Assembly (NCBI GenBank): GCA_016699245.1
Contig: CP064968.1
Span: 704,317-768,316 of the forward strand
From: Candidatus Kaiserbacteria bacterium
GTDB lineage: Bacteria; Patescibacteriota; Minisyncoccia; Phycocordibacterales; UBA918
Direction of reading: 5' to 3'
DNA length: 64,000 nt
Below, piece after piece: positions 655 to 34,444 of the stretch. The notes under the pieces are model-generated. The model was given only the letters and a program-made list of their open reading frames with translations, ran no database searches and was not told the origin of the DNA. The translations under genes were made by a program, and so were the position numbers. How positions within the stretch are numbered: position 1 is the stretch's first letter; every line of letters begins with the position of its first letter.

Positions 655-1311
655 CTATTCTTCTACGGGAGAAGGCAAAATTTCAGGCATTTTGGTAGTA
701 TTTTCTGGTATCTCAGTTAAATTTACTGGAAGATCTTTAGGTATTGCAGGGAGATTTTTTTGAATGGAAATGGTTTTAGCTAAAAAAGAATTCGTGCTCG
801 TTGATACCTCATCAAATGAAACAGCGGTGATTCTATCGCCCACTTGTATTTCATTAATAGCTATTTCCTTTTCAATATATGTCTTCGGTTGCTTTCCTTG
901 ATTACCATTGTTGACAAATTCCTTAATTTCTTTTTCGTATGTTACAGGTTCTTTGTTAGATATTAACAACAGTAATGTTTTAGCATCTGTACTTACGAGA
1001 ATACTTCTCTCAGTTGGATAGCCGGACTCAGGAGATAATTTTACATGTAATGTTGTATTTTCTACTGAAGTAACCTCACCAATAACAAAAAACTCTTTTT
1101 GATTTTGAAGTACTTCAATCACCTCTTCATGCTTCTCCTCTTCTGCAACTGCCGGAGGTGTACTTGAACTTATTGGAGCACTTATTGGAGTATTTTGATT
1201 TACTAATTCACTCGATTTTATTTTAGTAGTGTATACAAACAATAAAACTAAAATAATTAATGCACCAAGTGCAAGTACTCCTACAACTAGGGTAGTATTT
1301 TTAAATGACAT
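655..1311 (-). CDS. Hypothetical membrane-anchored protein (N-terminal TM helix, Ser/Pro/Glu-rich linker)
   Basis: 218-aa ORF 18 nt downstream of the 1330..1947 gene. Hydrophobic segment LVVGVLALGALIILVLLFVY. Confidence 0.55.
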   Translation of the reverse strand: MSFKNTTLVVGVLALGALIILVLLFVYTTKIKSSELVNQNTPISAPISSSTPPAVAEEEKHEEVIEVLQNQKEFFVIGEVTSVENTTLHVKLSPESGYPTERSILVSTDAKTLLLLISNKEPVTYEKEIKEFVNNGNQGKQPKTYIEKEIAINEIQVGDRITAVSFDEVSTSTNSFLAKTISIQKNLPAIPKDLPVNLTEIPENTTKMPEILPSPVEE

Positions 1312-1329
1312 AAAAATTACAACGACTAA

Positions 1330-1947
1330 CTATGCTTTTATGCAACTCATTACCCAATTATCCTCATTACTACCCGCAGTATAGGCCTGGTAGTACCCCG
1401 CTGGGCAACTAACATTAGGTGTATGACCATTGCAGGGGAAATTTGGATAAAGTGAACCATAAGTACTCCAAGCTCCACACTGTGTTCCAGGAAGAACAGC
1501 ACTAGTACTTACTGCATCATCAATCTGACTCACCCACTTCCCAGAACTTCGAATATACACGTCATTGGTGTAAATAGATGCTCTTGAGTTTTGCTTTTGG
1601 GCATTAGGATCCCATCCAGCACCATAGGTAGTAAGTGCCCAATCATCGGTCACTGAGTAATTTCGAACCGAACTAGTAATTGCACCGTACGTATTCAGTG
1701 CATTAACTATACTCGTAGAATTTGGGTCTATATAGTAACCTGAGTTATTATAATCGGAAAATGTTGTAGCCCCAATCGAACCTGCTTTCGACTGTGCAGT
1801 TGCACTCACATTAATTGGCGCGGCAACATTTGAAGTTGGCGGAGCACCTGTAGGAGCTGTCCACGCAAAGGTAACCTGCAATGCACCCATAGTAAAGGCA
1901 CCGAGTGCGATACCGAGGAAAACAAAAGAGAAGTTTTTGTATGACAT
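1330..1947 (-). CDS. Secreted/anchored Gly/Ser/Thr/Tyr-rich protein, paralog of 45332..46333
   Basis: 205-aa ORF with signal anchor FVFLGIALGAFTMGAL. Motif AWTAPTGAPPTSNVAAPINV...QSKAGSIGAT is shared with 45332..46333. Confidence 0.6.
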   Translation of the reverse strand: MSYKNFSFVFLGIALGAFTMGALQVTFAWTAPTGAPPTSNVAAPINVSATAQSKAGSIGATTFSDYNNSGYYIDPNSTSIVNALNTYGAITSSVRNYSVTDDWALTTYGAGWDPNAQKQNSRASIYTNDVYIRSSGKWVSQIDDAVSTSAVLPGTQCGAWSTYGSLYPNFPCNGHTPNVSCPAGYYQAYTAGSNEDNWVMSCIKA

Positions 1948-2594: not shown

Positions 2595-3953
2595 TTAAAA
2601 ATCTATTTCGATAGTCTCGTGCTCTGCCGGAGCAACCGCATTTACATCTAAATAGTCGCGGAGACGTTGCACCAAGAAAAGAGAGGCACGTTCTTCTCCC
2701 ATAGTTACAAAGACCTGCTTAACCTTTTCTCCTCCTTGTTCCACAAAATGAACGAGTTGGTCTCGGTCTGCATGTCCTGAATATCCACGAATGCGCGCAA
2801 TCTTAGCACGTACTTTAACGTCTGTATCGAGTATACGTACCTTTTTTGCGCCATCATTTAGTAATCGTCCAATACTACCCACCGCCTGATACCCCACAAG
2901 GAGTAATGTGGTCTTTGGGTCTTCGAGATAATTGCGCTCGTGCTCCTGTATACGTCCTCCATGACTCATTCCCGAACCTGCGATAATAATCTTCGCTCCA
3001 TGTTCCTGTCCAATCTTTGCAGAATCTTTCATTGAGTGCGTAAAGGAAAGTTTTGGAAAATTAAAGATATCGTCCCCTTCCCTAATCTGTGTCTGCACAT
3101 CTTCCTTGAGATAGCTGGTGTACCCACGGTAAATCTCGGTCACCGAGATAGCGAGTGGCGAATCCAGGAATACGGGGATTGGCTGAAGTCCCTCGTTTTC
3201 AAAGAGATTATTGATCTCAAAGAGCATTCCTTGGGTACGCTCGAGAGAAAAGGCGGGGATAATAAGCGTGCCCCCTTTATGAATCGTGTCCTCAATATAC
3301 ATACGGAGGAGGTCGGTACGTTCCTTCACCTCCTCATGTGAACGATCACCATAGACACTTTCCATAAGAAGGTAATCGTAGTCAGGAACAATTTCAGGTG
3401 GGTTTAAAAGTGGCTGTGGAATATTACCAATATCACCCGTGCAGAGGAATTTCTTTCCATTGCGTTCTAAAGTAATCATGGCAGAACCGAGAATATGTCC
3501 TGCGTCAGTAAAGGTAACACTCACCTCGTCCGGTATAGAAAATGTATCGTGGTACGTGTGGGTTTTCCAAAGTGAAAGTGCATGCTCAATATCCTGCCTT
3601 TCAAACACACGTGGAGTGCCAAATTTTTCTTCTTCAAAAAGCATCACTTTGTATGCATCCTGAAGCATTACCGCTGCTAAATCACGTGTGGGTGGTGTGG
3701 AATAAATAACACCACTGAAACCATCCTTAACAAGCTTCGGGATACGACCAATGTGGTCGGCATGTGCGTGAGTAACGAGGAGAACATTCACGGTATTGGG
3801 ATCATACGCAAAGGGGTCTGCATTTTTCGCAGAAGCAAATCTATCACCCTGCACCAATCCACAATCTACTAAAAAGCGGGCATTCCCTGTATCAAAAAGA
3901 AAATTTGCTCCCGTTACACTGCCTGTGCCCCCGTGAAAACTTAGTTTTGTCAT
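2595..3953 (-). CDS. MBL-fold beta-CASP family ribonuclease (RNase J/CPSF-like)
   Basis: 452 aa. HAHADH zinc motif, beta-CASP layout, C-terminal SGHADRDQL motif. Confidence 0.8.
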   Translation of the reverse strand: MTKLSFHGGTGSVTGANFLFDTGNARFLVDCGLVQGDRFASAKNADPFAYDPNTVNVLLVTHAHADHIGRIPKLVKDGFSGVIYSTPPTRDLAAVMLQDAYKVMLFEEEKFGTPRVFERQDIEHALSLWKTHTYHDTFSIPDEVSVTFTDAGHILGSAMITLERNGKKFLCTGDIGNIPQPLLNPPEIVPDYDYLLMESVYGDRSHEEVKERTDLLRMYIEDTIHKGGTLIIPAFSLERTQGMLFEINNLFENEGLQPIPVFLDSPLAISVTEIYRGYTSYLKEDVQTQIREGDDIFNFPKLSFTHSMKDSAKIGQEHGAKIIIAGSGMSHGGRIQEHERNYLEDPKTTLLLVGYQAVGSIGRLLNDGAKKVRILDTDVKVRAKIARIRGYSGHADRDQLVHFVEQGGEKVKQVFVTMGEERASLFLVQRLRDYLDVNAVAPAEHETIEIDF

Positions 3954-6978: not shown

Positions 6979-7548
6979 ATGAAGAAACACATCATTACTC
7001 TCGGAGGACTTCCCGGTAGTGGAAAATCCACGGTAAAACGCCTTTTAGCTGAGAAACTTGGATATGCCACCTTTTCGACAGGAGATTTTGTTCGTGAAAT
7101 GGCGCATGAGCGCAATCTCACTCTTGAAGAATTTAATGAACTCGTGAAGCGCGACAAAACGCTCGATCTACTGATCGATGAGCGTTTAAAGCGTATTGAG
7201 GCAGAAGAAGATTTTTATGTCATCGACTCACATCTCGCGTTTCACTTTGTACCGAGTGCATTCTCCGTATTTCTTTCAATATCTCCCGAATTGTCAGCAC
7301 AGCGTATTTTTAATGACGCCTCCTCTCCACTTCGCATAAAAAGTGGTGACACTATGGCATCACATGCGGAAGCATACACGCGCACACAAATGCGTATTCA
7401 GAATCACATTGAGCGTTATGCGAAACACTATGGCATCAATCCGTACAACGAGTCGCAGTATTGTTTAATCATTGATACTGAGGCACGCACACCAGAGGTT
7501 GTCGCAGATATTGTGCACACTGAATATCAGTCATGGCTCACTGGATAA
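6979..7548 (+). CDS. Cytidylate kinase-like P-loop NMP kinase (paralog 1)
   Basis: ITLGGLPGSGKST P-loop, ...IDSHLAFHFVP...FLSISPELSAQRIF resembles the Cmk lid region. Confidence 0.65.
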   Translation: MKKHIITLGGLPGSGKSTVKRLLAEKLGYATFSTGDFVREMAHERNLTLEEFNELVKRDKTLDLLIDERLKRIEAEEDFYVIDSHLAFHFVPSAFSVFLSISPELSAQRIFNDASSPLRIKSGDTMASHAEAYTRTQMRIQNHIERYAKHYGINPYNESQYCLIIDTEARTPEVVADIVHTEYQSWLTG

Positions 7549-7665
7549 ATTCATGAAATGTGAGCTCTGCTCACCAACACGTGCACTGCACGTGTATTTC
7601 ACTGGATAAATCCGGTGAAATGTGAGTTTCACTCACTGACACGTGCACTGCACGTGTATTTCACT
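7549..7665. repeat. Two tandem copies of a ~55-nt structured element (outer stem GGTGAAAT/ATTTCAC plus two internal hairpins), separated by ATAAAT(CC) spacers
   Basis: Copy 1 7549-7603 and copy 2 7611-7665. Each has hairpins GTGAG..CTCAC and ACACGTGCA-C-TGCACGTGT. A third related copy lies at 21390..21442. Confidence 0.8.
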
Positions 7666-7711
7666 GGATAAATATTTTTGAAGTGCAAAACGTATAGTGT
7701 ACACTTGCTGT

Positions 7712-8338
7712 ATGGAACGTCAGCACATTATTACACTTACCGGAAAGCCTGGGAGTGGAAAATCATCAACGGCCGACCGTGTCGCAGAAATGCTTGGGTA
7801 TACACGGTATTCTTCTGGTGAGTATGTACGTGCTATTACGCAGAAACATAAAATAACCTTGAGTGACTTTAATACCCGTGCTGAATCACATCCTGAAATG
7901 GATCAACAAATTGATATTGCGCTACGTAAACTTCGCGATCAGAGTGATATCGTCATTGATGCACGTCTTGGTTTCTACTGGATTCCCGAATCCTTCAAAG
8001 TATTCCTTGACCTCAATAGCGATGTAGCAATTGCACGTATCTTCAAAGATGCCAATTTTAATACTGGCCGCAGTGGCGCTGGTGAAGGAGGTGACGTAAT
8101 GAACGATGTGGCTGACCAGGTAGAAAAACGTATGCGGAGTGAGCGCATTCGTTTCAAAAAACTCTATGGCGTTAATCCCTATAGTATCGAACATTTTGAT
8201 CTCGTGATTGACACCGCGCAACACAGCCCACAAACCGTAGCACTTACTATTTTCGATACCTATAAAAGATGGTTGAAATCCTCAAGTTGGAAACAAGTAA
8301 TCAGCAGAGTACCTCTAGGATTCTCGTTTAAACACTGA
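7712..8338 (+). CDS. Cytidylate kinase-like P-loop NMP kinase (paralog 2)
   Basis: ORF 7697 has a GTG start. ATG at 7712 gives MERQHIITLTGKPGSGKSS, parallel to the paralog 1 N-terminus. Confidence 0.65.
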   Translation: MERQHIITLTGKPGSGKSSTADRVAEMLGYTRYSSGEYVRAITQKHKITLSDFNTRAESHPEMDQQIDIALRKLRDQSDIVIDARLGFYWIPESFKVFLDLNSDVAIARIFKDANFNTGRSGAGEGGDVMNDVADQVEKRMRSERIRFKKLYGVNPYSIEHFDLVIDTAQHSPQTVALTIFDTYKRWLKSSSWKQVISRVPLGFSFKH

Positions 8339-8569: not shown

Positions 8570-10010
8570 CTACGTCTCCTGCCCATACCCCTGCACTTCC
8601 ACCTTGACTGATTGATCAACAATCGGACAATCTATGGTGAATGTGGTGTTCACGCTGACGAAATATGATTGTGACCCAAGGCCTGTGGTTGACGGTACCC
8701 AGGGCATGCTATTTCTAGTGATGGCACAATTAATTTCCATGCCGGTACCCCATTCAACGAGTACGTCTTTCCCACTACTTGGCACCCTGCGTGGGTCTGC
8801 CTTGATGAAGGGTTCTGTATTCACATCAACTACTTTACTATCGAGGAGTCCTGGATACGGTGCGCAGGTGAGTGAGTACGTGGTGTCACTTGTGAGGGAT
8901 GAGGATAGTTCTGAGCCTGATGTCCCACCCCATGTATCTACACCACCAGTGACTTTTTGTTGGTGTACATCCACCTGTGGGTGTAATAGACCAATCGATA
9001 GTTGATTTTGTGTCGTATGCAATTGGAGAAGTGACCGTGAGGTTACCGGTTGGCTTTGGATGTACGGTGAAGCTTTTCTCCATGCAGTTGTTGGGTATTC
9101 CCGGAGGATCATCAGGTTCAACAATATCTCTGTTTGAATCGACACAATACTGAATATACAAGGTACCAGACCCACTCAGGTCTAGCGTAGCGATGTCTTG
9201 ACCAATTTCGTTTACGTCAAAACCTGCAGGGTGATCGGTATATGGAGTGATATCGATCCATGTACCAGTGACATTCCAGCGGTATGAGAAGTTGTTTTTA
9301 AAGGCATTGGGAGTAGGGATGACTCCTATATTTGTCATAGTCCCGTCTAAGACAACGATTTGTCCATCAAAGAATACGTTTCCTACTGAGGGGACGGTGG
9401 CGGTAAAGCCGATGGGTTTGAGGTCAGCATCATTTTGGATACAAGCGTAACCACTTCCTGTTACACCGTAAGGAGTACCATTTGTTGCTACTCCTGCAAA
9501 ACTTATCCACCCAACGACGGTAGACCCCCACGCATAGCCACTCCATGCACACCCTGTTGCAGTAACACCGTAATCAGGACCTGTGCCTGATAAACTAATC
9601 CACCCATCCCAACCTCCTGAATTAGCAGTTCCTCCCGCAAGCGCTTTAGCCCAACCTGTTACCACGCCAGTTGTACTATTAAAAAATGGTGCACAGGTAC
9701 CTGCACCTGAAGGACACCCCGACGTTTCATTGAAACTTATCCATCCTATATATTCACTCCATGCATATCCTGAAAGCGCACCATTGCTTGCAGCAGTAAC
9801 CCCATATGGTGACGTTCCGCATGATCCTGTATCAGTACAATTAAATGAAATCCATCCCATGGTTTCACTCCATGCATATCCTGAAAGATAATCAGATGCA
9901 CTTGATTCAGCATTCGGTACACGCATGCTGAATAAAGTTCCCACCACAATACCTATCAGCACGAGTGCATACGCGAGTAGATGCTTTGACTGTACTAAAT
10001 TGCTATTCAT
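8570..10010 (-). pseudogene. Large secreted surface protein with tandem GYAWSE.IGWISF repeats, split by a frameshift at a T5/A5 run (~8954-8958)
   Basis: ORFs 8886..10010 and 8570..9175 overlap in different frames. Joining them at ccaacaAAAAAgtcact gives a continuous, plausible ...GGCTPTK|VTGGVDTWGG... sequence. Signal peptide at the N-terminus. Confidence 0.55.
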
Positions 10011-18685: not shown

Positions 18686-19549
18686 TTACTTTCCAGAGTT
18701 TGCCATGAGTTTACCTGGCTTTCGGCGGGTAACAATGAAAGTGTTTGAGTACTTTCGTGGCTTGCGGGTCTTTTGGCCCTTGCCTGTTGGACGTCCTTGC
18801 TTGGTGCGGGCGTGCTTGTGTCCACGAGGAGCACGTCCTTCACCTCCTCCGTATGGATGGTCAACAGCGTTTCGAGCTGATCCACGAGTCTTTGGACGAA
18901 GTCCAAGTTTTCGTGCGCGACCAGCCTTTCCGAGAGTAATCAAACGATATTCTTCGTTCGATACCGCTCCGATAGTTGCCCATGCAGTAGAGATGATGCG
19001 TCGTACCTCCGATGAAGGAAGTTTGACGAGTGTGTAGCCTGCATCCTGTGCAACTACTTCTGCGTAGGTTCCTGCTCCACGCGCAATACGTGATCCTGCT
19101 CCTGGCTTCAACTCGACGTTAAAGACAAAGGTACCGACAGGAATGCTCCCGAGAGGAAGACGGTTACCCATCTTTGGCTTTGCGGTTTCAGAGACAACGA
19201 ATTCGTCGCCCTTCTTCCAGCCCTTTGGTGCGAGCACATAGCGTCGTTCTCCATCCTTGAAGAGTACGAGTGCGATAAATCCTGAACGGAATGGATCGTA
19301 CTCAATAGTCTCGACAATTGCAGGAATATCCTTCTTGTTGTAGACAAAGTCTACATCACGATAGGTGCGCTTGTTTCCCCCTCCACGATAGTGGTTGGTG
19401 GTGCGTCCACTACTGTTACGACCTCCTGTAGAGCGTGCGCCCATGGTGAGTCGCTTGAGTGGCTCGCTCTTTGAAGTGGTGAGTACGTCACCGTACGAAA
19501 CTACCGTCATTCCGCGGCGACCTGCCGATGTTGGTTTATATTTTTTCAT
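18686..19549 (-). CDS. rplB: 50S ribosomal protein L2
   Basis: L2 family. Confidence 0.95.
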   Translation of the reverse strand: MKKYKPTSAGRRGMTVVSYGDVLTTSKSEPLKRLTMGARSTGGRNSSGRTTNHYRGGGNKRTYRDVDFVYNKKDIPAIVETIEYDPFRSGFIALVLFKDGERRYVLAPKGWKKGDEFVVSETAKPKMGNRLPLGSIPVGTFVFNVELKPGAGSRIARGAGTYAEVVAQDAGYTLVKLPSSEVRRIISTAWATIGAVSNEEYRLITLGKAGRARKLGLRPKTRGSARNAVDHPYGGGEGRAPRGHKHARTKQGRPTGKGQKTRKPRKYSNTFIVTRRKPGKLMANSGK

Positions 19550-21270: not shown

Positions 21271-21389
21271 TTATTTTAAAAACTAACTGATAAATGCTTT
21301 TTGACCGAGGTAATTGAAAAACCGCGATTTCCTAGTCGCAAGCACAAGCTCGCAGACTAAAAAATCGCGGTTTTGCGCCCATTGGTCTC

Positions 21390-21442
21390 CCGGTGAAATA
21401 CGAGCTTTGCTCGTCACACGGCTTTGCCGTGTATTTCACTGG
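21390..21442. repeat. Third copy of the ~55-nt structured element (GGTGAAAT ... GTATTTCACTGG flanks, two internal hairpins)
   Basis: ccggtgaaatacgagctttgctcgtcacacggctttgccgtgtatttcactgg. The flanks are shared with 7611..7665. The internal stems differ in sequence but still pair. Confidence 0.75.
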
Positions 21443-21561
21443 GGTACGTAGGTCTTAAAAAGCTAGGAGGAGTATACAGGAATACTCGAAAGATGCAATG
21501 ATGCAGTCCCCCAAGTTCAATAATTAATTGCAACACCTGATTAGGACATCAGATGTCCTAA

Positions 21562-21903
21562 TTATCGGAAAAGAAGAATTTTAATATTTTCACTTACTTC
21601 CTCAATAACTTCCGTAGAAACTTTTTGTATGAAACGAACTTTTCGACTTTTCCAATCCAAATTGCGCATTTGGTCGGAAAGCACTACACCGTCAACTTTC
21701 TCTTCGCTGAGCGGAACTTCATACGAATACCCCTTTATGCGTGAAGTTATGGCACAAGCAACCATAAGATTTGTCCTTTCATTATATTTTATTGGAGAAA
21801 GAACGAGCACTGGTCTAAGATTCGCCTGTTCGTGTCCTCTCGTGGGACTCAAGTCAATCCACACAACATCACCTTTGTCGGGGACATATTTCTCTTTTAC
21901 CAT
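21562..21903 (-). CDS. mazF: Type II toxin MazF/PemK family endoribonuclease
   Basis: YVPDKGDVVWIDLSPTRGHEQANLRPVLVLSP...KGYSYEV...VVLSDQMRNLDW closely parallels E. coli MazF. Confidence 0.9.
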   Translation of the reverse strand: MVKEKYVPDKGDVVWIDLSPTRGHEQANLRPVLVLSPIKYNERTNLMVACAITSRIKGYSYEVPLSEEKVDGVVLSDQMRNLDWKSRKVRFIQKVSTEVIEEVSENIKILLFR

Positions 21904-22139
21904 ATTTCGTTACCCACTGGCTTACCCCAATCCACCTCTTCGTGAAGATTTTCTTTTGTTATACCTTTAAGCATATCGTCAAGAGTACGACGCTCCCTCT
22001 TCACAACTTCAATGGAAATCCCTGTTTTTGTTTCTGTTACCAAAACACGACTCCCTGCTTTTAAAGATTTGCTCATAGCAATACTCTTTGGCAGACGAAC
22101 TCCGAGACTATTCCCCCATTTTTGAATATTAGTTTCCAT
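21897..22139 (-). CDS. mazE: Type II antitoxin MazE (AbrB/SpoVT fold)
   Basis: ATG at 22139 gives METNIQKWGNSLGVRLP...ITKENLHEEVDWGKPVGNEIW, parallel to the E. coli MazE C-terminus. Overlaps mazF by 7 nt. Confidence 0.9.
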   Translation of the reverse strand: METNIQKWGNSLGVRLPKSIAMSKSLKAGSRVLVTETKTGISIEVVKRERRTLDDMLKGITKENLHEEVDWGKPVGNEIW

Positions 22140-22145
22140 ATGTTG

Positions 22146-22170
22146 AAAGTATATACTATGTATATACTTT
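22146..22170. promoter_or_regulatory. Perfect palindrome AAAGTATATAC-TAT-GTATATACTTT 7 nt upstream of the mazE start: putative MazE/MazF operator
   Basis: 11-bp arms seen directly. E. coli mazEF is autoregulated through a promoter palindrome. Confidence 0.5.
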
Positions 22171-22276
22171 TGCAATACTCGTTGTTCCCCAACGCCACGA
22201 GGCGCACTGCAACAAGATCGTGAAGGTGAATCTATTACGTACCCCAGACACGTGACTTTCTTTGCCTAACAAATAC

Positions 22277-22307
22277 AAAACCCCGCGGCCAAGGGCCGCG
22301 GGGTTTT
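22277..22307 (-). terminator. Intrinsic terminator after rpsJ
   Basis: aaaaccccgcggccaagggccgcggggtttt. Confidence 0.7.
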
Positions 22308-22336
22308 GTAACAAACTGGTGACAACAATAACACTC

Positions 22337-27234: not shown

Positions 27235-29412
27235 CTATGCCTCTTCGTCTATATCCTTTACGCCACGCATTTTCTTAATCTCCATGGCGACGTTTGGTGG
27301 GACTACGTCGTAGTGGTCAAATTCCATGGTCATAGATGCGCGGCCTTCGGTCATAGAACGAAGGGTCGTGGTGTATCCAAACATTTCGGAGAGCGGTACC
27401 TTTGCGTGTACCACCTTTGCCATACCACGGTCATCCATTCCTTCCACCAGTCCACGCTTTGAACTAATGTTTCCGTTCACATCTCCCATGAATTTTTCAG
27501 GAGTGGTTACCTCAACCTTCATGATAGGTTCGAGAAGTACGGCACCTGCGCTCTTTGCAGCCTCTTTGAAGGCGTGAATTGCAGCGAGTTTAAAGGCAAT
27601 TTCTGAAGAGTCCACTTCGTGGTAACTACCATCGTAGAGTTCGACAGAAATATCTTCCATCTTGTATCCTGCCACGAATCCACGACCCATAGCCTCCTTA
27701 CATCCCTTCATTACTGCAGGAATGTACTCTCCAGGAATCACACCTCCCTTAATGCTGTTTACAAATTCGAAGTGGTCTTCACGCGTAACATTCTTTGCGA
27801 GTGACTTTCCTTCAGCGAGTTGAAGTGGTTCCATTGGCTTAATGCGAATCTTCACATGGCCATATTGCCCCTTACCTCCTGACTGCTTAATGTATTTATA
27901 CTCTGCCTCAGCTGGTCGCTGAATGGTTTCGCGGTACGCCACCTGTGGCTTGCCTACGTTTGCCTCTACACCGAATTCACGCTTCATGCGGTCAACGATA
28001 ATTTCGAGATGGAGTTCTCCCATACCCGCAATAATAGTTTCGAAAGTTTCTTCATCAGTAGACACTTTGAAAGTTGGGTCTTCGTCTGAAAGCTTCTTCA
28101 TTGCCATACCCATCTTCTCTTGGTCGTTCTTGGTTTTTGGTTCGATACGCATTGCTACCACTGGCTCGGGGAACGTAATAGTTTCGAGAATGATAGGCTT
28201 ATCTTCTGCACAGAGTGTATGTGAAGTCTTCACATCCTTAATTCCCACACCAGCAGCAATTTCACCCGCAAACACTTCCTCAATTTCTGTTCGCTTGTCT
28301 GCCTGCAGGCGCACGATGCGTCCGAGTCGTTCCTTTTCACCTGTTGATGCGTTGTAAAGGTAACTTCCTGCCTTGATTGTACCTGAGTACACACGGAAGA
28401 AGGTAAGCTGTCCCACAAATGGGTCAGTTTGGAGTTTAAATGCAAGTGCGCAAAAAGGTTCTTCATCTGATGCACTACGAAACTCCTCGGCATCAGTATC
28501 TGGATTCGTCCCCTTTACTGGTGGCAGATCTACTGGTGACGGGAGGTAGTCCACTACAGCGTCGAGAACTCGTTGCACACCAATGTTCTTGAGTGCAGAA
28601 CCCGTCATCACAGGGAAGATTGCGTTTGCAATCACTGCCTTTCTCAGTGTCTTCTGGAGTTCCTCGTATGAAGGAATCATCCCTTCGAGGTATGCACTCA
28701 TTTGCTCATCATCGTGTTCGACGATGCGCTCAACAAGTTCTGCATGATATTTCTCTGCGGTCTCTTTGAGTTCCGCAGGTATCTCATGTTCAACCACCTT
28801 CATTCCCATCTCTCCTTCAAAGGTATACGCCTTCATCTTCAGAAGGTCGATAGTACCTGCGAGGTTTTCTTCTGAGCCCCAAGGGATTTGATAGCGAACT
28901 GCCTTTGGTGAAAGGCGGTTAAGAATAGATGCGTACGACCGCTCGAAATCTGCTCCTGTGCGATCCATCTTGTTGATGAAACAAATTCGGGGAACTCCGG
29001 CCTCATCGGCATACCGCCAGTTCGTCTCTGACTGTGGCTCTACTCCCGCAACACCATCAAACACCACAATCGCACCGTCGAGTACACGCATTGAGCGCTT
29101 TACCTCTGCGGTAAAGTCGATGTGTCCAGGAGTATCGATGATGTTAAAGGTGTACTTGAGTTCAGGATCGATACGGTCTGCGATAAGTGACGGTGTCCAG
29201 TTACAAGAAATCGCCGCTGCAGTAATGGTAATACCGCGTTCACGCTCTTGTTCCATCCAGTCGGTCACTGTTGCACCATCGTGCACCTCACCGATTTTGT
29301 GGCTCATACCAGTGTAGAAAAGCACACGCTCTGAAGTCGTGGTCTTTCCGGCATCAACGTGCGCAACAATACCGAAGTTACGAAGTTTATGTAATGGGAA
29401 TGCTCGTGCCAT
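27235..29412 (-). CDS. fusA: Elongation factor G
   Basis: 725 aa. AHVDAGKTT G-domain through the C-terminal domains. Confidence 0.95.
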   Translation of the reverse strand: MARAFPLHKLRNFGIVAHVDAGKTTTSERVLFYTGMSHKIGEVHDGATVTDWMEQERERGITITAAAISCNWTPSLIADRIDPELKYTFNIIDTPGHIDFTAEVKRSMRVLDGAIVVFDGVAGVEPQSETNWRYADEAGVPRICFINKMDRTGADFERSYASILNRLSPKAVRYQIPWGSEENLAGTIDLLKMKAYTFEGEMGMKVVEHEIPAELKETAEKYHAELVERIVEHDDEQMSAYLEGMIPSYEELQKTLRKAVIANAIFPVMTGSALKNIGVQRVLDAVVDYLPSPVDLPPVKGTNPDTDAEEFRSASDEEPFCALAFKLQTDPFVGQLTFFRVYSGTIKAGSYLYNASTGEKERLGRIVRLQADKRTEIEEVFAGEIAAGVGIKDVKTSHTLCAEDKPIILETITFPEPVVAMRIEPKTKNDQEKMGMAMKKLSDEDPTFKVSTDEETFETIIAGMGELHLEIIVDRMKREFGVEANVGKPQVAYRETIQRPAEAEYKYIKQSGGKGQYGHVKIRIKPMEPLQLAEGKSLAKNVTREDHFEFVNSIKGGVIPGEYIPAVMKGCKEAMGRGFVAGYKMEDISVELYDGSYHEVDSSEIAFKLAAIHAFKEAAKSAGAVLLEPIMKVEVTTPEKFMGDVNGNISSKRGLVEGMDDRGMAKVVHAKVPLSEMFGYTTTLRSMTEGRASMTMEFDHYDVVPPNVAMEIKKMRGVKDIDEEA

Positions 29413-29699
29413 ATAAATAATCTAAAATACTAAATAATAAAACCAAAATGAAAAATAAATTTTGATTGGTTTCCCCTTCCTGAGGGCGAATAAATCGCCT
29501 GAGAAAAGAAAAGCCCACGGGGGCCTATTGGCGCCTACTATACGATATATGACACACGAGAGCAATAGGATGATTTCAAAAAAATGATTTTATATTCAAA
29601 CACGTGAATATCAATTTCATCAGCATTTTGCTTTTCACTAAAAGTATGTCATAATAATGTTCGGTAGCACATCATCAACTTTTAATGAAGGAGATTGCC

Positions 29700-30101
29700 A
29701 TGAGGCGCTTTTTTGTTTTTCTCGCTCTCGTAATGAGCACAACATCTGCGTATGCACAAGACAACCCACACGATTCACCGTGGGAACAATATGGGCAAGA
29801 TGCTTGGGTGCTCAATATCGAGGGTATCGGAAGGAATGAAAGTATCGTTCTGATACGAAACCCACAAGGGACACACTTCACTGCGACTGCAGTATGTTCA
29901 GACGGTGTTTATTCCGAAGTATATTCCTGGAGCCAAGGGCACACCCATGCAAAAGGCGTAGACTGCACGGGGAAACGCGTAAGTCGTGCTGCGACGTACT
30001 GGGAAGGATGGATTCATCCACTTCCTCATCAAACTCCCAAAACCATACCAACTCCCACACCAAAACGTCGCGTGCTCGCCGCTGTTCCAAATACACACTG
30101 A
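29700..30101 (+). CDS. Small secreted protein (Sec signal peptide)
   Basis: ATG at 29700 with a GGAG SD. MRRFFVFLALVMSTTSAYAQD signal. Terminator follows. Confidence 0.55.
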   Translation: MRRFFVFLALVMSTTSAYAQDNPHDSPWEQYGQDAWVLNIEGIGRNESIVLIRNPQGTHFTATAVCSDGVYSEVYSWSQGHTHAKGVDCTGKRVSRAATYWEGWIHPLPHQTPKTIPTPTPKRRVLAAVPNTH

Positions 30102-30111
30102 ATGATGTGTG

Positions 30112-30150
30112 GTCCGTCGCAAGCACAGCTTGCGACGGTTTTATTTTTTT
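30112..30150 (+). terminator. Intrinsic terminator
   Basis: tccgtcgcaagcacagcttgcgacggttttattttttt. Confidence 0.7.
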
Positions 30151-30169
30151 CGTACGTTATACTGTATAC

Positions 30170-31198
30170 ATGAAGTATCGTTCACTCATTCTTGTATACC
30201 TACTCTTCCTCCCTTTCTTTTCACATGCGAATACTGAGAACGCGGGGTTCGTGCAAGGACTTTGGTATTCATCACAACCAGTTTTTGCTGAGGTCCCCAC
30301 ACGCATTTACATTGCACTACGCAACAATACGGGGCATGACCTCACGGGCACCGTGCGTTTTACCGACAACGAAAAGCGTATTGGTTCTTTTGAGGTGAGT
30401 GCGCTCGAGGGACGTCTTGTAGAGGCATGGGTAGACTGGATTCCGACAAAAGGAGAGCATGTCATCACCGCAACCGTAAGCGATGCAGTACTTCATGTAA
30501 TTGGGGGAAACACGGAGTCTGCTGATATTACCGGTATCACGGCAAGTGATACCCTCATCGTGGATTATGACACTGATCGTGATGGCATAGGTAACACCGA
30601 AGACACCGATGACGACAACGATTCTGTGTCTGATACTGAAGAAACCGAACGAGGGAGTAATCCGCTTGTCAGTAACCCAAAATCTGTTTCTGAAGAAACT
30701 GAAAGTTCTAAAGACTCTGAAAGTCCGAATACTGAAGTACTCACTGCAGATACTCGTACAGAGACAAAAAAATCTACTCCTTCGCGTGGAGGACTCGAAC
30801 AGTATATTGAAAACGAAAAAGTAGATACACTCTTTGGAAGTGTCACCGAAAAAATTGAAAATGCGAAAACAGCGCTCGATACATACCGTGAGAGACGGGA
30901 CACAACACTCGCGGAAAACACCTCACCAACTGAGTTAGAACATCCAACCGAAATGAAATTGGGAACACTCACTGAAAACGCCACCATTACACGCACACAG
31001 ATAGACACCGAAAAGGGTTTTCTTAAATCCTTTGTTGCCGGTGTTGCAGCACTTCTTTCAAGCCTTTGGACACTGGTACTTTTTTCAACTTCAAAAATTC
31101 TAAATTATCCCGCAATACTCGAGGTCCTCCTACTTCTGGGAATTCTTGTATTTTTCTATCGTGTTGCGCGGCGATTAGGTCGTCGTAATCGGTATTAG
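30170..31198 (+). CDS. Secreted, C-terminally membrane-anchored acidic protein with TSP3-like calcium-binding Asp motif
   Basis: ATG at 30170 (MKYRSLILVYLLFLPFFSHA signal). DTDRDGIGNTEDTDDDNDS motif. C-terminal TM plus RRLGRRNRY. Confidence 0.55.
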   Translation: MKYRSLILVYLLFLPFFSHANTENAGFVQGLWYSSQPVFAEVPTRIYIALRNNTGHDLTGTVRFTDNEKRIGSFEVSALEGRLVEAWVDWIPTKGEHVITATVSDAVLHVIGGNTESADITGITASDTLIVDYDTDRDGIGNTEDTDDDNDSVSDTEETERGSNPLVSNPKSVSEETESSKDSESPNTEVLTADTRTETKKSTPSRGGLEQYIENEKVDTLFGSVTEKIENAKTALDTYRERRDTTLAENTSPTELEHPTEMKLGTLTENATITRTQIDTEKGFLKSFVAGVAALLSSLWTLVLFSTSKILNYPAILEVLLLLGILVFFYRVARRLGRRNRY

Positions 31199-31204
31199 TG
31201 CATC

Positions 31205-31236
31205 AAAAAACCGCGGCACAGTGCGCCGCGGTAATT
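31205..31236. terminator. Bidirectional intrinsic terminator
   Basis: aaaaaaccgcggcacagtgcgccgcggt. Confidence 0.6.
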
Positions 31237-31238
31237 CT

Positions 31239-31859
31239 TCATTCCTGCTTCACCCATACACGTACTGACGGCTGTTTATCGGTACCCCGATAAATATACC
31301 CTTGTGATGGTGGTGTGATACCCCTTTCCTTAAAGGATATATACATAATTCTATCTCGAATTGTAGGTGATGCAGGATACTCCACTTTTGTGCAATCAGG
31401 TAAGACAATAAGGCTCGACCATCGTGAAAAAATAAGCCCTCGCCTGCTAAAGCCTGCCGACGCAAATATCGTTGACAGCATACCCGTACACTCAGTAAAA
31501 AGTACTGGCTTAAAGATATCTTCATCGAGTCGTGGGAACAGTCCAATAGGATGTGCTGCAAAAAACAATCCCTTCGGCTTCAATGTACGTATGAGTTCTG
31601 CTTCGATACCATGTGTACCGCCATCAAAGAGATTTAAGCCATTTAATGTCACCGCATCAAGACTCTGATCGGGAACATTGAATGCGCTGTACAGTGCAAA
31701 TATCTTACGAATTCCTGCATGTGTAGCGTCACCATTCCACAACCCCTTAAGCCGTCTATCCCCACACAAGTAGAGAAATCTCAGTTTTGGGTTATACGAC
31801 TTCAAGTTCTTCACGAATGATGTATTACCTGCGCCAATGTCCAAAAGTACTTTAGTCAT
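31239..31859 (-). CDS. Class I SAM-dependent methyltransferase
   Basis: VLLDIGAGNTSF motif I. 206 aa. Confidence 0.55.
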   Translation of the reverse strand: MTKVLLDIGAGNTSFVKNLKSYNPKLRFLYLCGDRRLKGLWNGDATHAGIRKIFALYSAFNVPDQSLDAVTLNGLNLFDGGTHGIEAELIRTLKPKGLFFAAHPIGLFPRLDEDIFKPVLFTECTGMLSTIFASAGFSRRGLIFSRWSSLIVLPDCTKVEYPASPTIRDRIMYISFKERGITPPSQGYIYRGTDKQPSVRVWVKQE

Positions 31860-31989
31860 GATGTCCTCCTCATAGGATTATCTACACGAGAATATACATT
31901 ACAAACTTGAAATAGCAAGAGTATACCTAACAGACACAGAAAACCCCGCGCAAAGTGCATGACTTTCTTAAACAGACAAACGCTTTATT

Positions 31990-32313
31990 TTACCCCACTA
32001 CTTTAAATCCAAGTTCTGCAACCGCCGCTGCTATTTCTCTTTTCACTAACTCAAGATTATCTGCATACACAATAATTTCCTGTTGCGATATGTTGTCACG
32101 CACGACAAGCATCAAACATGCACTCTCGAGAGAGATTTTTACCCGACGCAGTCCCTTTGTGGTAGGAAGTCCTGACTTGATATATCCGAGCACTATTTTT
32201 TTCACGAAAGGATTCCTTTCCGCAATATCCACAACCAGCCCCGCAGCAGGAACGACCGTCGTGTGTGAACCTGTTACCTTTCCTCCGGCGCGAGCGCCTT
32301 TTGGTTTTGCCAT
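31990..32313 (-). CDS. Hypothetical small protein
   Basis: 107-aa ORF 6 nt downstream of the GH15-like gene. Confidence 0.45.
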   Translation of the reverse strand: MAKPKGARAGGKVTGSHTTVVPAAGLVVDIAERNPFVKKIVLGYIKSGLPTTKGLRRVKISLESACLMLVVRDNISQQEIIVYADNLELVKREIAAAVAELGFKVVG

Positions 32314-32319
32314 ATAAAA

Positions 32320-33372
32320 CTACTGCATCTCCTCTACCTTCTTGAGTGCAATGACATACATACTTTCTGCCCAGCCGAGAGGAGTGTTCTCATTGGGGTT
32401 ATGTGTATGGGAGTAGTAGAGTTCGGGAATCTTGCCGTTTTCGGTTATCGTACTCTTTGCATGCATGAGATACCATTCCGCCTTTGCTTTGTCTCCACGC
32501 TCTGCATAAATAATCGCAAGCCATGAAAGTCCCATACACCATTCCGCCTCCTCACTATGTCCATCAACATTGGCGTTGTAGTAGCGGTCGTTTTTGTAGC
32601 GTATTACCCCCTTATCTTTGGTGAGGTGATATTCCACATTGCGTAAAATAGCCACAGTCTCGTCTTCAGTTGCCTCGCGGAATGGGTACACTATCGAAAG
32701 AAGCGCGAGATCAGCAAACTTTTCTGCTGATTCTCGTGGTAAGAGTGCACGAAGTGCTGTCTCTCCCTTTTGAATGACACCTTCGGGCACCGTGAGCCAT
32801 GGCACCTGTGCTGCTTTTTTAAGTGCTGCATTTACCGCTGCAATCGAAGACGCATGTATCTCCATACCCTCCTCCCAAATACCGTTATCCAAGTCGTGCC
32901 AATATTCTATGCGCACAAGGTAGTCCACAATCTTTTGCACGAGGGCTCGCTCTGCGTCAGTTGCTACAATACTTTCTCCGCGCATCTCGAGATGCATAAT
33001 TAAATCAAGGACTTCGCCCACTGCATCATTTTGGCGATTACCCCACTCCTCCCAATATTCTTCAAAAGACTCTGGATGAAAACGTGCATGAATGTATTGC
33101 CATGTCTCATATGGCTTGTGCTCAATAGCCCAGTCAATTTTTTCTGCGTGCTTCATAAAAAGCGCAAGGAGTGCACGCGCCGTATCTTTTACTGTTTCAA
33201 TATCACCCAATTCCAAAAAACAAAGTACCGTGAAGTAGTTGTCACGCAGCCACGCTTTATCATAGCCAGTGTGAACATTCGATGCAGACGCCGTATAGAC
33301 GCCTGTTGGTTTCCGGAGCGCACGTATCTCATTCACGTGCGCCTGAATCTCTGCTTCGAAATCAATAGTCAT
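32320..33372 (-). CDS. Glycoside hydrolase family 15-like (glucoamylase-type) protein
   Basis: GYDKAWLRDNYF (the W-x-R-D hallmark) and acidic EEAEW region. 350 aa. Confidence 0.5.
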   Translation of the reverse strand: MTIDFEAEIQAHVNEIRALRKPTGVYTASASNVHTGYDKAWLRDNYFTVLCFLELGDIETVKDTARALLALFMKHAEKIDWAIEHKPYETWQYIHARFHPESFEEYWEEWGNRQNDAVGEVLDLIMHLEMRGESIVATDAERALVQKIVDYLVRIEYWHDLDNGIWEEGMEIHASSIAAVNAALKKAAQVPWLTVPEGVIQKGETALRALLPRESAEKFADLALLSIVYPFREATEDETVAILRNVEYHLTKDKGVIRYKNDRYYNANVDGHSEEAEWCMGLSWLAIIYAERGDKAKAEWYLMHAKSTITENGKIPELYYSHTHNPNENTPLGWAESMYVIALKKVEEMQ

Positions 33373-33386
33373 ACGGAAAAGAAGAA

Positions 33387-33662
33387 CTATGCAGCAAGTG
33401 AACGCATGCGATTATCAAATTCATTTTGTCCGCGAATCATTAGTACATTCCGTGTGAGTTCTTTTGCGAGATACCGATTTTTGTTATCATCCACAAGTTT
33501 GTCTATATGTGCTTCTAGTACTGCACACTGCTCGTCGGCGTCCATGGTTTCAAAATCAGAAATACCCGCAATAATTTCCTTGGCTTTTTCAGGTGCCTGC
33601 TCCTTCAATTCTCGCCACATCTGAGTATTTTCTGCACTTTCAACACGTGATATTCCCTCCAT
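33387..33662 (-). CDS. Hypothetical small acidic protein
   Basis: 91-aa ORF, first gene of the accessory operon. Confidence 0.4.
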   Translation of the reverse strand: MEGISRVESAENTQMWRELKEQAPEKAKEIIAGISDFETMDADEQCAVLEAHIDKLVDDNKNRYLAKELTRNVLMIRGQNEFDNRMRSLAA

Positions 33663-33795
33663 AGAAACACATTATCCTAATATACCGATAATTGTATCAT
33701 GCCCGTGAATGAGTACACAAAATGCTTATAACCATCTAATGGTGATTCAAAAAGATTGAATCTGGTAGATGTTATTTTCTAGTGCAGTACAAGGC

Positions 33796-33968
33796 AAAAG
33801 CCCGAAATTTTTGTGAGCCGTACTCAACGTACGGTGAACAAAAATTTCGGGCTTTTAACGCAGTAAGGAAATGGAGTCGCTACAGAGTCTGGAGACGTCT
33901 GTTTTTTCTCCGGGGGGAGAAAAAACAGACGGACTCGAAAAATATACGGGCTCTGCCCGTTATTTTTC
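33796..33968. repeat. Three consecutive perfect hairpins (18-bp, 15-bp and 6-bp stems) downstream of rpsG
   Basis: aaagcccgaaatttttgt...acaaaaatttcgggcttt, gtctgttttttctcc-gggg-ggagaaaaaacagac, and acgggctctgcccgt plus T-run (rpsG terminator). Confidence 0.7.
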
Positions 33969-33970
33969 GG

Positions 33971-34444
33971 TCACCAAGCGAAGTGGGCGAAGGCTCGGTT
34001 AGCCTCTGCCATGCGGTGGGTATCGTCCTTCTTCTTTACGGCTGCTCCTTCTCCCTTTGCAGCGAGCATTATTTCTGATGAAAGTGACTTGAACATTGGC
34101 TTACCTTTCTGTCCGCGCGCGGCAGTAATAATCCAACGAAGTGCAAGTGCGAGACGTCGCTCGGGGCGAACCTCACGAGGTACCTGATAGTTTGCTCCAC
34201 CGACACGGCGTGAGCGCACCTCCATTTGTGGTCCTGCATTACGAATAGCAGTTTCAAATATTTCTACAGGGTCTCCGCCTCCTTCCTTTGCGTTCTTAAT
34301 TACTTCAAATGCTGCGTATACGATTTTGCGTGCAGTCTCCTTCTGTCCGTTCACCATGATGTAGTTCACGAGTCGTGAGACGTTTACTGAATCATATCGT
34401 TCGTCCTTGCCGAGCGGTGCTCGTCGTTTAATTGGTCGTCGCAT
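33971..34444 (-). CDS. rpsG: 30S ribosomal protein S7
   Basis: S7 family. Confidence 0.95.
   Translation of the reverse strand: MRRPIKRRAPLGKDERYDSVNVSRLVNYIMVNGQKETARKIVYAAFEVIKNAKEGGGDPVEIFETAIRNAGPQMEVRSRRVGGANYQVPREVRPERRLALALRWIITAARGQKGKPMFKSLSSEIMLAAKGEGAAVKKKDDTHRMAEANRAFAHFAW

Follow-up and report, generated by a model that had tools for sequence, protein, structure and literature searches.

Three copies of a small double-hairpin repeat beside kinase and ribosomal-protein genes probably belong to an undescribed family of REP/MITE-like elements present in several bacterial phyla

The window considered here (the whole stretch of 64,000 nucleotides that was analyzed) carries on its minus strand tuf, the S10-spc ribosomal-protein cluster, secY, adk, and map, with typical housekeeping genes elsewhere. 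ARAGORN and Rfam scans return no tRNA, tmRNA, or other known RNA gene in the 64 kb, and no transposase or recombinase is found among the Pfam-annotated window genes. On the plus strand lie two P-loop kinase paralogs, kinase 1 (6979-7548) and kinase 2 (7712-8338), which match Pfam Cytidylate_kin2 with E values of 1e-11 and 1e-14 and flank two of the three repeat copies described below. Their head-to-tail arrangement on the strand opposite to secY and adk is a conserved Saccharibacteria feature, shared by the window with L134, L135, L167, and L181 (comparison loci are cited throughout by such numbers); the closest relatives, L121, L122, and L127, retain kinase 2 alone. Between secY and the kinases, a minus-strand gene (8886-10010) encodes a product of 374 aa that has repeated GYAWSExxGWISF motifs, a signal or anchor segment, and no Pfam match. 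Further along the window, a normally tight operon is broken between fusA (27235-29412) and rpsG (33971-34444), which stand about 4.5 kb apart; the intervening stretch (29413-33970) holds unrelated genes, including one for a glycosyl hydrolase 15-like protein and two without a Pfam match.

The remaining repeat copy lies within the ribosomal-protein cluster, antisense to the operon, between mazF and the rplC leader. Saccharibacteria have a hot spot of variable insertions in the rpsJ-rplC spacer (21271-22336 in the window): in the gaps compared (the window, L121, L122, L138, L150, L154, L161, L184, L196, L198, and L200), its length is between about 190 nt and 3.3 kb and it holds unrelated cargo, which in the window is a mazE/mazF toxin-antitoxin pair (21562-22175, minus strand; Pfam PemK_toxin, E 2e-26, and MazE_antitoxin, E 1e-7). 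Read along the minus strand, mazEF is upstream of copy 3, which in turn abuts the 5' side of a long hairpin with a U-run located upstream of rplC (21318-21387, minus strand). This hairpin gives a terminator-like match, is found at 76-94% identity in L121, L122, L150, L175, L135, and L161, and looks like an L3-operon leader or attenuator, with no match to an Rfam family. The start of rplB in the window (ORF 18686-19549) is identical to the rplB start that lies downstream of a copy of the element in Saccharibacteria locus L073, and the window was taken to come from a Saccharibacterium.

The window holds exactly three copies of the element, all on the plus strand: copy 1 at 7550-7605, copy 2 at 7612-7667, and copy 3 at 21390-21442, the latter two being canonical and exact matches to the search pattern given below. 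Every copy contains two perfect hairpins with 3-nt loops, set 1-2 nt apart, and all three are predicted to fold as RNA into a three-way junction in which a closing stem of 10-12 bp (CCGGTGAAAT paired with ATTTCACTGG) surrounds both hairpins. Copy 2 consists, in order, of the arm CCGGTGAAAT, a first hairpin (H1) of GTGAGT-TTC-ACTCAC, the dinucleotide TG, a second hairpin (H2) of ACACGTGC-ACT-GCACGTGT, and the arm ATTTCACTGG; its hairpins occupy 7622-7636 and 7639-7657, and its closing stem can extend to 7610-7669. In copy 3, the arms CCGGTGAAAT and ATTTCACTGG enclose ACGAGC-TTT-GCTCGT (21400-21414), a single C, and ACACGGC-TTT-GCCGTGT (21416-21432), and the stem can extend to 21388-21444. Copy 1 begins with the arm TTCATGAAAT, continues with GTGAGC-TCT-GCTCAC (7560-7574), CA, and the same H2 as copy 2 (7577-7595), and ends with ATTTCACTGG. 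The preliminary description of this DNA had assigned common flanks to all three copies, which is exact for copies 2 and 3 and does not extend to copy 1, whose 5' arm is degenerate and lacks GGTGAAAT; similarly, the ATAAAT that it placed after each copy follows copy 1 (7606-7611) and copy 2 (7668-7673), while copy 3 is followed by GGTACG instead. Predicted folds give -24.2 kcal/mol (z -5.1) for copy 1, -32.2 kcal/mol (z -7.0) for copy 2, and a z score of -6.9 for copy 3. A covariance model, one of the checks that had been proposed, recovers all three window copies (37.8 bits and E 4e-7 for copy 1; 64 bits and E 2e-13 for copy 2; 63.4 bits for copy 3).

Since copies 1 and 2 are adjacent and identical over their last 32 nt (32/32 bases), one might suppose that the locus records a local tandem duplication, that the third copy resembles it by accident, and that no family exists. 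We give this explanation almost no weight. For the pattern GTGAAAT-N30-50-ATTTCAC, the expectation is 0.02 occurrences per window and the count is two, and covariance-model matches reach E values of about 1e-13; dozens of copies with the same architecture exist elsewhere, at a frequency far above that in shuffled interiors (see below). Taken together, family size, shuffles, and covariance-model matches exclude a chance origin of the three copies, and the three structures of about 55 bases are confirmed as real copies of one small repeat. A descriptor search picks out these three copies, as does the covariance model with its filters switched off (E about 1e-13), and neither detects any other copy, diverged ones included, in the 64 kb.

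Copies 1 and 2 are also entangled with the end of kinase 1. The 14-nt sequence CTCACTGGATAAAT at 7537-7550 (plus strand), which is identical to the sequence that ends copies 1 and 2 together with the spacer after it, provides this gene with its final three codons and its stop, as had been pointed out before as a hint of an origin by duplication. Kinase 1 orthologues in L134, L167, and L181 have unrelated terminal codons, equal in length to those here, with the stop three residues past a conserved Trp. Because the orthologues end in unrelated codons after that Trp, the kinase 1 end CTC ACT GGA TAA may be what remains of the element or may have arisen by slippage on a 12-nt repeat. An association of the element with the kinases themselves does not hold up: Saccharibacteria loci keep the kinase paralogs between secY and adk, and since relatives carry both genes 10-60 nt apart without the element, the kinase association of copies 1 and 2 is incidental. 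The window copies are passengers, not regulators specific to the kinase genes.

How selection acts on the element is apparent from its covariation. Already between copies 1 and 2, H1 differs by one compensated pair, C-G versus T-A (GTGAGC/GCTCAC versus GTGAGT/ACTCAC). When the 23 best covariance-model matches are aligned with the model as guide, H1 has a covariation score of 0.422, compared with 0.131 for shuffled alignments (0 of 500 as high) and 0.07-0.12 for slid controls, and all six of its six pairs change on both sides; these values bear out the earlier proposal of selection on structure. H2 is poorly registered in the 23-sequence alignment because the junction length varies. The inner part of the closing stem covaries as well (GTGAAAT/ATTTCAC, GTGCAAT/ATTGCAC, GTTAAAT/ATTTAAC, GTGAAAC/GTTTCAC, and GTGAAGT/ACTTCAC), as do two positions outside the searched pattern, which form C-G in 16 copies and U-A in 6. 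We found no conserved unpaired bases in the junction, which comprises 0-2 variable nucleotides, or in the loops, which are variable. These observations support selection on pairing, under which the hairpins drift by compensated changes and the closing stem holds its sequence.

The consensus element, 45-60 nt long, can be written CC(C)GG-TGAAAT ... ATTTCA-CTGG(G), with one conserved imperfection 3-4 bp from the base of the stem. At stem position 3, this imperfection is mostly G.T, and in other copies C.C, G.G, a T.G plus G.T doublet, or T-A. The G.T (G.U) pair was considered as proof of a plus-strand RNA and rejected, given the C.C, G.G, and T-A variants; because several pair types occur, position 3 is a conserved helix imperfection and not a mark of plus-strand RNA. 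Wobble pairs within the hairpins are likewise uninformative on strand because the stems are about 96% Watson-Crick. We also rejected C-to-T decay at CCGG methylation sites as the source of the mismatch, as its direction runs contrary to the usual strand bias.

The element is far from private to this window. Running the exact pattern CCGGTGAAAT-N25-55-ATTTCACTGG on 185,579 genomes, one per species, yielded at least 120 loci, so that the refuting outcome named in advance, the existence of only these three copies, did not materialize. A two-hairpin interior is present in 38 of the 124 matches listed, compared with 1.3% of shuffled interiors. Hosts among the matches listed are Saccharibacteria, other Patescibacteria, Desulfohalobiaceae/Desulfovermiculus, Desulfobacteraceae, Bacteroidota/Saprospiraceae, and Bdellovibrionales, and the interior sequences are unrelated from lineage to lineage. 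Individual genomes can carry several copies: the Saccharibacteria MAG SRP286056_co3_504 has at least 6 on 4 contigs (L019 twice, L026, L056 twice, and L101), and MFD03804.bin.2.56 has 3 near-identical copies among the matches listed. The covariance model picks up additional copies with changed stems; the diversity of the family is under-sampled because the copies outside the window were all found by requiring the closing-stem sequence.

Copies also combine with one another. Tandems occur outside the window in L071, L098, and L083, and nested copies in L010, L098, and L005; Desulfohalobiaceae and Saprospiraceae are the hosts of nested, stem-only, and tandem forms. In the stem-only forms, the closing stem surrounds a purine-rich loop of 7-9 nt (for example GAGGAGA), and in Desulfobacterota copies sit within hairpins of other copies; stem-only or nested forms were located at L046 5876-5908, L075 7737-7784, L010 1405-1476, L098 4337-4500, and L005 1880-1950. 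Across the 38 loci, we found no recurrent neighboring gene or transposase. No phage copies were found, as the 8 IMG/VR loci recovered with three closing-stem variants are chance matches that lack the two hairpins. At the Rfam gathering threshold, the window and 33 loci contain no family match to the element, and at E values up to 10 the region 7520-7700 gives only microRNA-like noise.

Comparison of orthologous sites shows that the element is present at some and absent at others. In the close relative L121, both sides of the copy 3 site align, and a small hairpin, TCCGTTACATAACGGA, stands in place of the element. The rplN-rplX spacer is 5-28 nt long in about 60 Saccharibacteria loci including the window, versus about 130-139 nt with the element (L042, L109, L117, L134-137), where it caps a longer imperfect hairpin that spans the interval between the stop codon on one side and the next start codon on the other; only 4 of the 80 ribosomal-protein operon loci compared contain it. 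The Saccharibacteria flanking arm TATGAGTGAAACGAATTAG is absent from the window. The rplN-rplX spacer appears to have been invaded repeatedly. We note in this connection that the rplN-rplX spacers of L123, L139, L148, L158, and L177 carry other long-hairpin inserts of 124-155 nt, that of L123 having outer arms as in the Saccharibacteria composite element and a different tip. Several Saccharibacteria have a second, unrelated three-way-junction palindromic element directly at the rplE 3' end (L128 895-964, L130 2048-2123, L145 7591-7662, L167 7618-7684, and L168 676-740); it has the form CTTGCC..TTC, two hairpins of 9-12 bp with 4-nt loops, and GAA..GGCAAG.

Hairpin tips recur as sites of the element, which takes their place in the rplC leader of the window, at a terminator hairpin in L105, and in RNase P RNA, and the nested copies of L010, L098, and L005 are further cases. 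In helix P13 of L026 and L078, the element is a 57-nt insert by Rfam alignment; in P3, as seen when three syntenic genes are aligned, it is present in L030 and L078, whereas the corresponding hairpin of L026 is plain and its tip homologous. Three element copies, in both orientations, lie in the RNase P RNA gene of L030. That gene (about 1120-1760, minus strand) was recognized by GAGGAAAGTCCGGGC, ACAGAACCCGGCTTAT, and synteny with L026 and L078; it carries about 200 nt of extra inserts besides its three double-hairpin elements and is missed at the Rfam gathering threshold. In the RNase P RNA of L026 (3511-3937), the base CCCAG..CTGGG and the tip TTTTAGGC..GCCTAAAA of the P3 hairpin recur in a second hairpin on its 3' side (alignment positions about 3700-3760), and the two look like copies of another hairpin repeat.

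With regard to strand, when the element is written as in the preliminary description, its flanking genes are antisense in 50 cases and sense in 15 (50/65, about 77%), and the strand reading CCGG..CTGG has negative GC skew at 25 loci and positive at 9. These gene-orientation and skew signals confound one another, and neither rule holds for the Desulfohalobiaceae copies. Within the window, copies 1 and 2 belong to the minority as regards the orientation of their genes; relative to replication, all three window copies point the same way, since plus-strand GC skew is negative from 1 to 52 kb.

The bias toward one transcriptional orientation is one reason to consider a functional cis-acting RNA module, in which the closing stem with its A.C or G.U would be the site of a conserved RNA-binding protein or RNase and the hairpins structural spacers, resulting in intercistronic processing, protection from exonucleases, or scaffolding. 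It would also accommodate the many copies that end 36-50 nt ahead of the next start codon, the Saccharibacteria copies lying between ribosomal-protein cistrons in a stop-to-start-codon hairpin, and the tolerance of the element within RNase P RNA. In addition, in possibly orthologous elements the closing stem is invariant where the surrounding arms fall to about 60-70% identity, which implies purifying selection that a purely selfish element need not show; similarly, a 20-nt closing stem identical across phyla could indicate a conserved cellular partner and hence a function. Nevertheless, we consider the RNA module unlikely, roughly a one-in-several prospect, as presence at orthologous sites is sporadic, both orientations occur in one RNase P RNA (L030), copies 1 and 2 run against the prevailing gene orientation, the gene contexts are mutually unrelated, and there are no conserved unpaired nucleotides or loops that might form a pocket or recognition loop. 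The small structured RNA put forward in the preliminary description is likewise not established, given that the apparent G.U is a helix imperfection and most copies elsewhere are antisense.

The same orientation data could instead be read in terms of replication: as single-stranded DNA, the element would be the target of an HUH enzyme, a replication factor, or a recombinase specific for one strand, and the flaw in the stem would pick that strand, by analogy with integron attC sites, IS200/IS605 elements, and REP hairpins. Orientation would then follow replication direction, which suits the 25-to-9 skew and the uniform orientation of the three window copies to GC skew even though copies 1 and 2 oppose the usual gene orientation. 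Maintenance of the position-3 imperfection as several non-Watson-Crick pairs (G.T, C.C, G.G) fits as well, as do copies in L101, L045, and L109b in which the interior is inverted and the asymmetry of the stem retained. Against such a site are the confounding noted above together with the Desulfohalobiaceae exceptions, the absence of attC cores and GTAG/CGTC tags, a 5' flank that is often TTCAC or TTAC and not so at copy 3, and the lack of any Y1/HUH gene in the neighborhoods surveyed; we regard it as improbable, somewhat more so than the RNA module.

The reading that we favor, and hold to be probable, is that the copies represent an undescribed family of non-autonomous double-hairpin repeats of the REP/MITE type. 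The literature searched contains no prior description of a bacterial double-hairpin family and offers general REP, MITE, and mitochondrial analogues only. Counted for the family are the two-hairpin interiors and their covariation, the multi-copy state, patchiness at orthologous sites, hairpin-tip sites, tandems, orientation bias, and the lack of an Rfam match; among the possibilities raised in the preliminary description, a REP/MITE-like repeat fits best the multi-copy, patchy, tandem or nested occurrence across phyla. Counted against a mobile repeat are the failure to find a transposase, recombinase, or recurrent neighbor, the modest copy number in the window (3 in 64 kb), and the flanks, in which we found no target-site duplication. 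Because none was found, we infer movement of the copies rather than observe it.

Such a repeat would behave as a non-autonomous mobile or selfish element (multi-copy, patchy at orthologous sites, tandem and nested) whose landing sites are intergenic spacers, the tips of hairpins already present, and helices that RNA genes can do without. An enzyme, probably one acting on folded single-stranded nucleic acid, would recognize the closing stem in trans by its conserved sequence and imperfection, and the two hairpins would need only to fold; the orientation bias might reflect strand-specific insertion or selection within transcripts. A bolder version, which we put forward tentatively and at less than even chances, is that three-way-junction elements of about 50 nt across phyla invade hairpin tips (P3 and P13 of RNase P RNA, ribosomal-protein leaders) by means of trans-acting machinery that reads the imperfect stem on a folded single strand, making them a bacterial counterpart of mitochondrial double-hairpin elements; the process may be RNA-mediated, or the element may double as a protein-recognition module.

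A stem fixed across distant phyla around hairpins that turn over provides a clean natural case of selection on fold versus selection on sequence, and conservation of the stem points to a partner enzyme or protein. Because Saccharibacteria genomes are small and tightly packed, the tolerance of repeats in ribosomal-protein operons and RNase P RNA is unexpected. On the practical side, the element accounts for some "divergent" RNase P RNAs scoring near or below Rfam thresholds, and it can serve to trace insertion polymorphism at the level of strains. Mobility through hairpin tips, if real, would be a new mode of target choice among bacterial miniature elements.

Among known classes of bacterial repeats, REPs and REPINs consist of one imperfect palindrome of 20-40 nt whose base is marked by a conserved GTAG or CGTC tetranucleotide, and together with BIMEs are mobilized by RAYT (TnpA-REP, a Y1 transposase), whose gene is typically REP-flanked; it has been proposed that REPs are recognized as folded single strands. 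The present element resembles them as a short, structured, extragenic repeat with an imperfect stem that occurs in tandem or in clusters and in intergenic positions within operons. It differs in having a three-way junction in place of a single hairpin, in a stem common to several phyla in place of a species-specific one (this identity across phyla is unlike REPs because REPs are lineage-specific), and in its low copy number in the window (3 per 64 kb). The GTAG/CGTC tag is absent from the copies, which begin with CC(C)GG or CCAG and have two hairpins inside a stem, and no RAYT, Y1, or HUH gene is found among the Pfam-annotated window genes or as a recurrent neighbor in the 38 loci.

MITEs and similar repeats (Correia, RUP, BOX, and Rickettsia palindromic elements) are likewise non-autonomous and small and can sit inside transcripts and RNA or protein genes, and their terminal inverted repeats are resembled by the two arms of the closing stem. 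They are, however, roughly 100-400 nt long, compared with 45-60 nt here, and the interior of the present element evolves by compensated changes, which implies that folding matters and not the ends alone, unlike in MITEs. The flanks hold no direct repeats of the target-site duplication kind; related flanks are inverted, for example TTCAC...GTGAA. We know of no parent IS for the element.

Integron attC sites pair a 5' R'' box (RYYYAAC) with a 3' R' box (GTTRRRY), have extrahelical bases, and are adjacent to intI or a cassette array. Common to both are conserved outer paired boxes, a variable and sometimes branched center, helix imperfections that choose the strand, and an orientation bias, to which may be added the toxin-antitoxin cassette beside copy 3. 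The order of the core is nonetheless reversed (GTGAAAT on the 5' side, ATTTCAC on the 3' side), with one mismatch each, no integrase or cassette array is found in the window or the loci, and copies of the present element lie inside RNA genes and ribosomal-protein operons.

Several other assignments can be set aside. No T-run lies 3' of any window copy and terminator and promoter scans call none, which argues against an intrinsic terminator; neither conserved unpaired bases nor an Rfam match suggests a riboswitch or self-cleaving ribozyme such as the hammerhead three-way junction, and ARAGORN and Rfam detect nothing tRNA-like. Insertion in the style of IS200/IS605, 3' of TTAC or TTCAC, fits many 5' flanks and was rejected on failing at copy 3 and at the Desulfohalobiaceae copies. 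A reading of GTGAAAT/ATTTCAC as parS, a Noc site, or a DNA uptake sequence was rejected as well, since the half-sites resemble parS and their spacing is wrong; within the window, the 10-mer is confined to the copies.

The closest known analogue appears to be the double-hairpin and other repetitive hairpin-forming elements of mitochondria, known from Allomyces, sponges, and yeasts (PMC2800124). These are tiny non-coding repeats of one to three hairpins, often in tandem, that reside in spacers and in the variable portions of rRNA genes, differ in occurrence from one close relative to the next, and persist in transcripts; flanking target duplication is not reported for the Allomyces elements (PMC2800124). 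All of these descriptive features recur in the bacterial element, with RNase P RNA in place of rRNA; the class is one of behavior, and we claim no homology. Both are dispersed, patchy between relatives, found in tandem, and located in spacers and RNA genes without target duplication. The mitochondrial elements differ in being organellar, lineage-specific, and rich in AT or GC clusters, whereas the bacterial hairpins are enclosed by a closing stem of conserved sequence that completes a three-way junction and is the same in several phyla.
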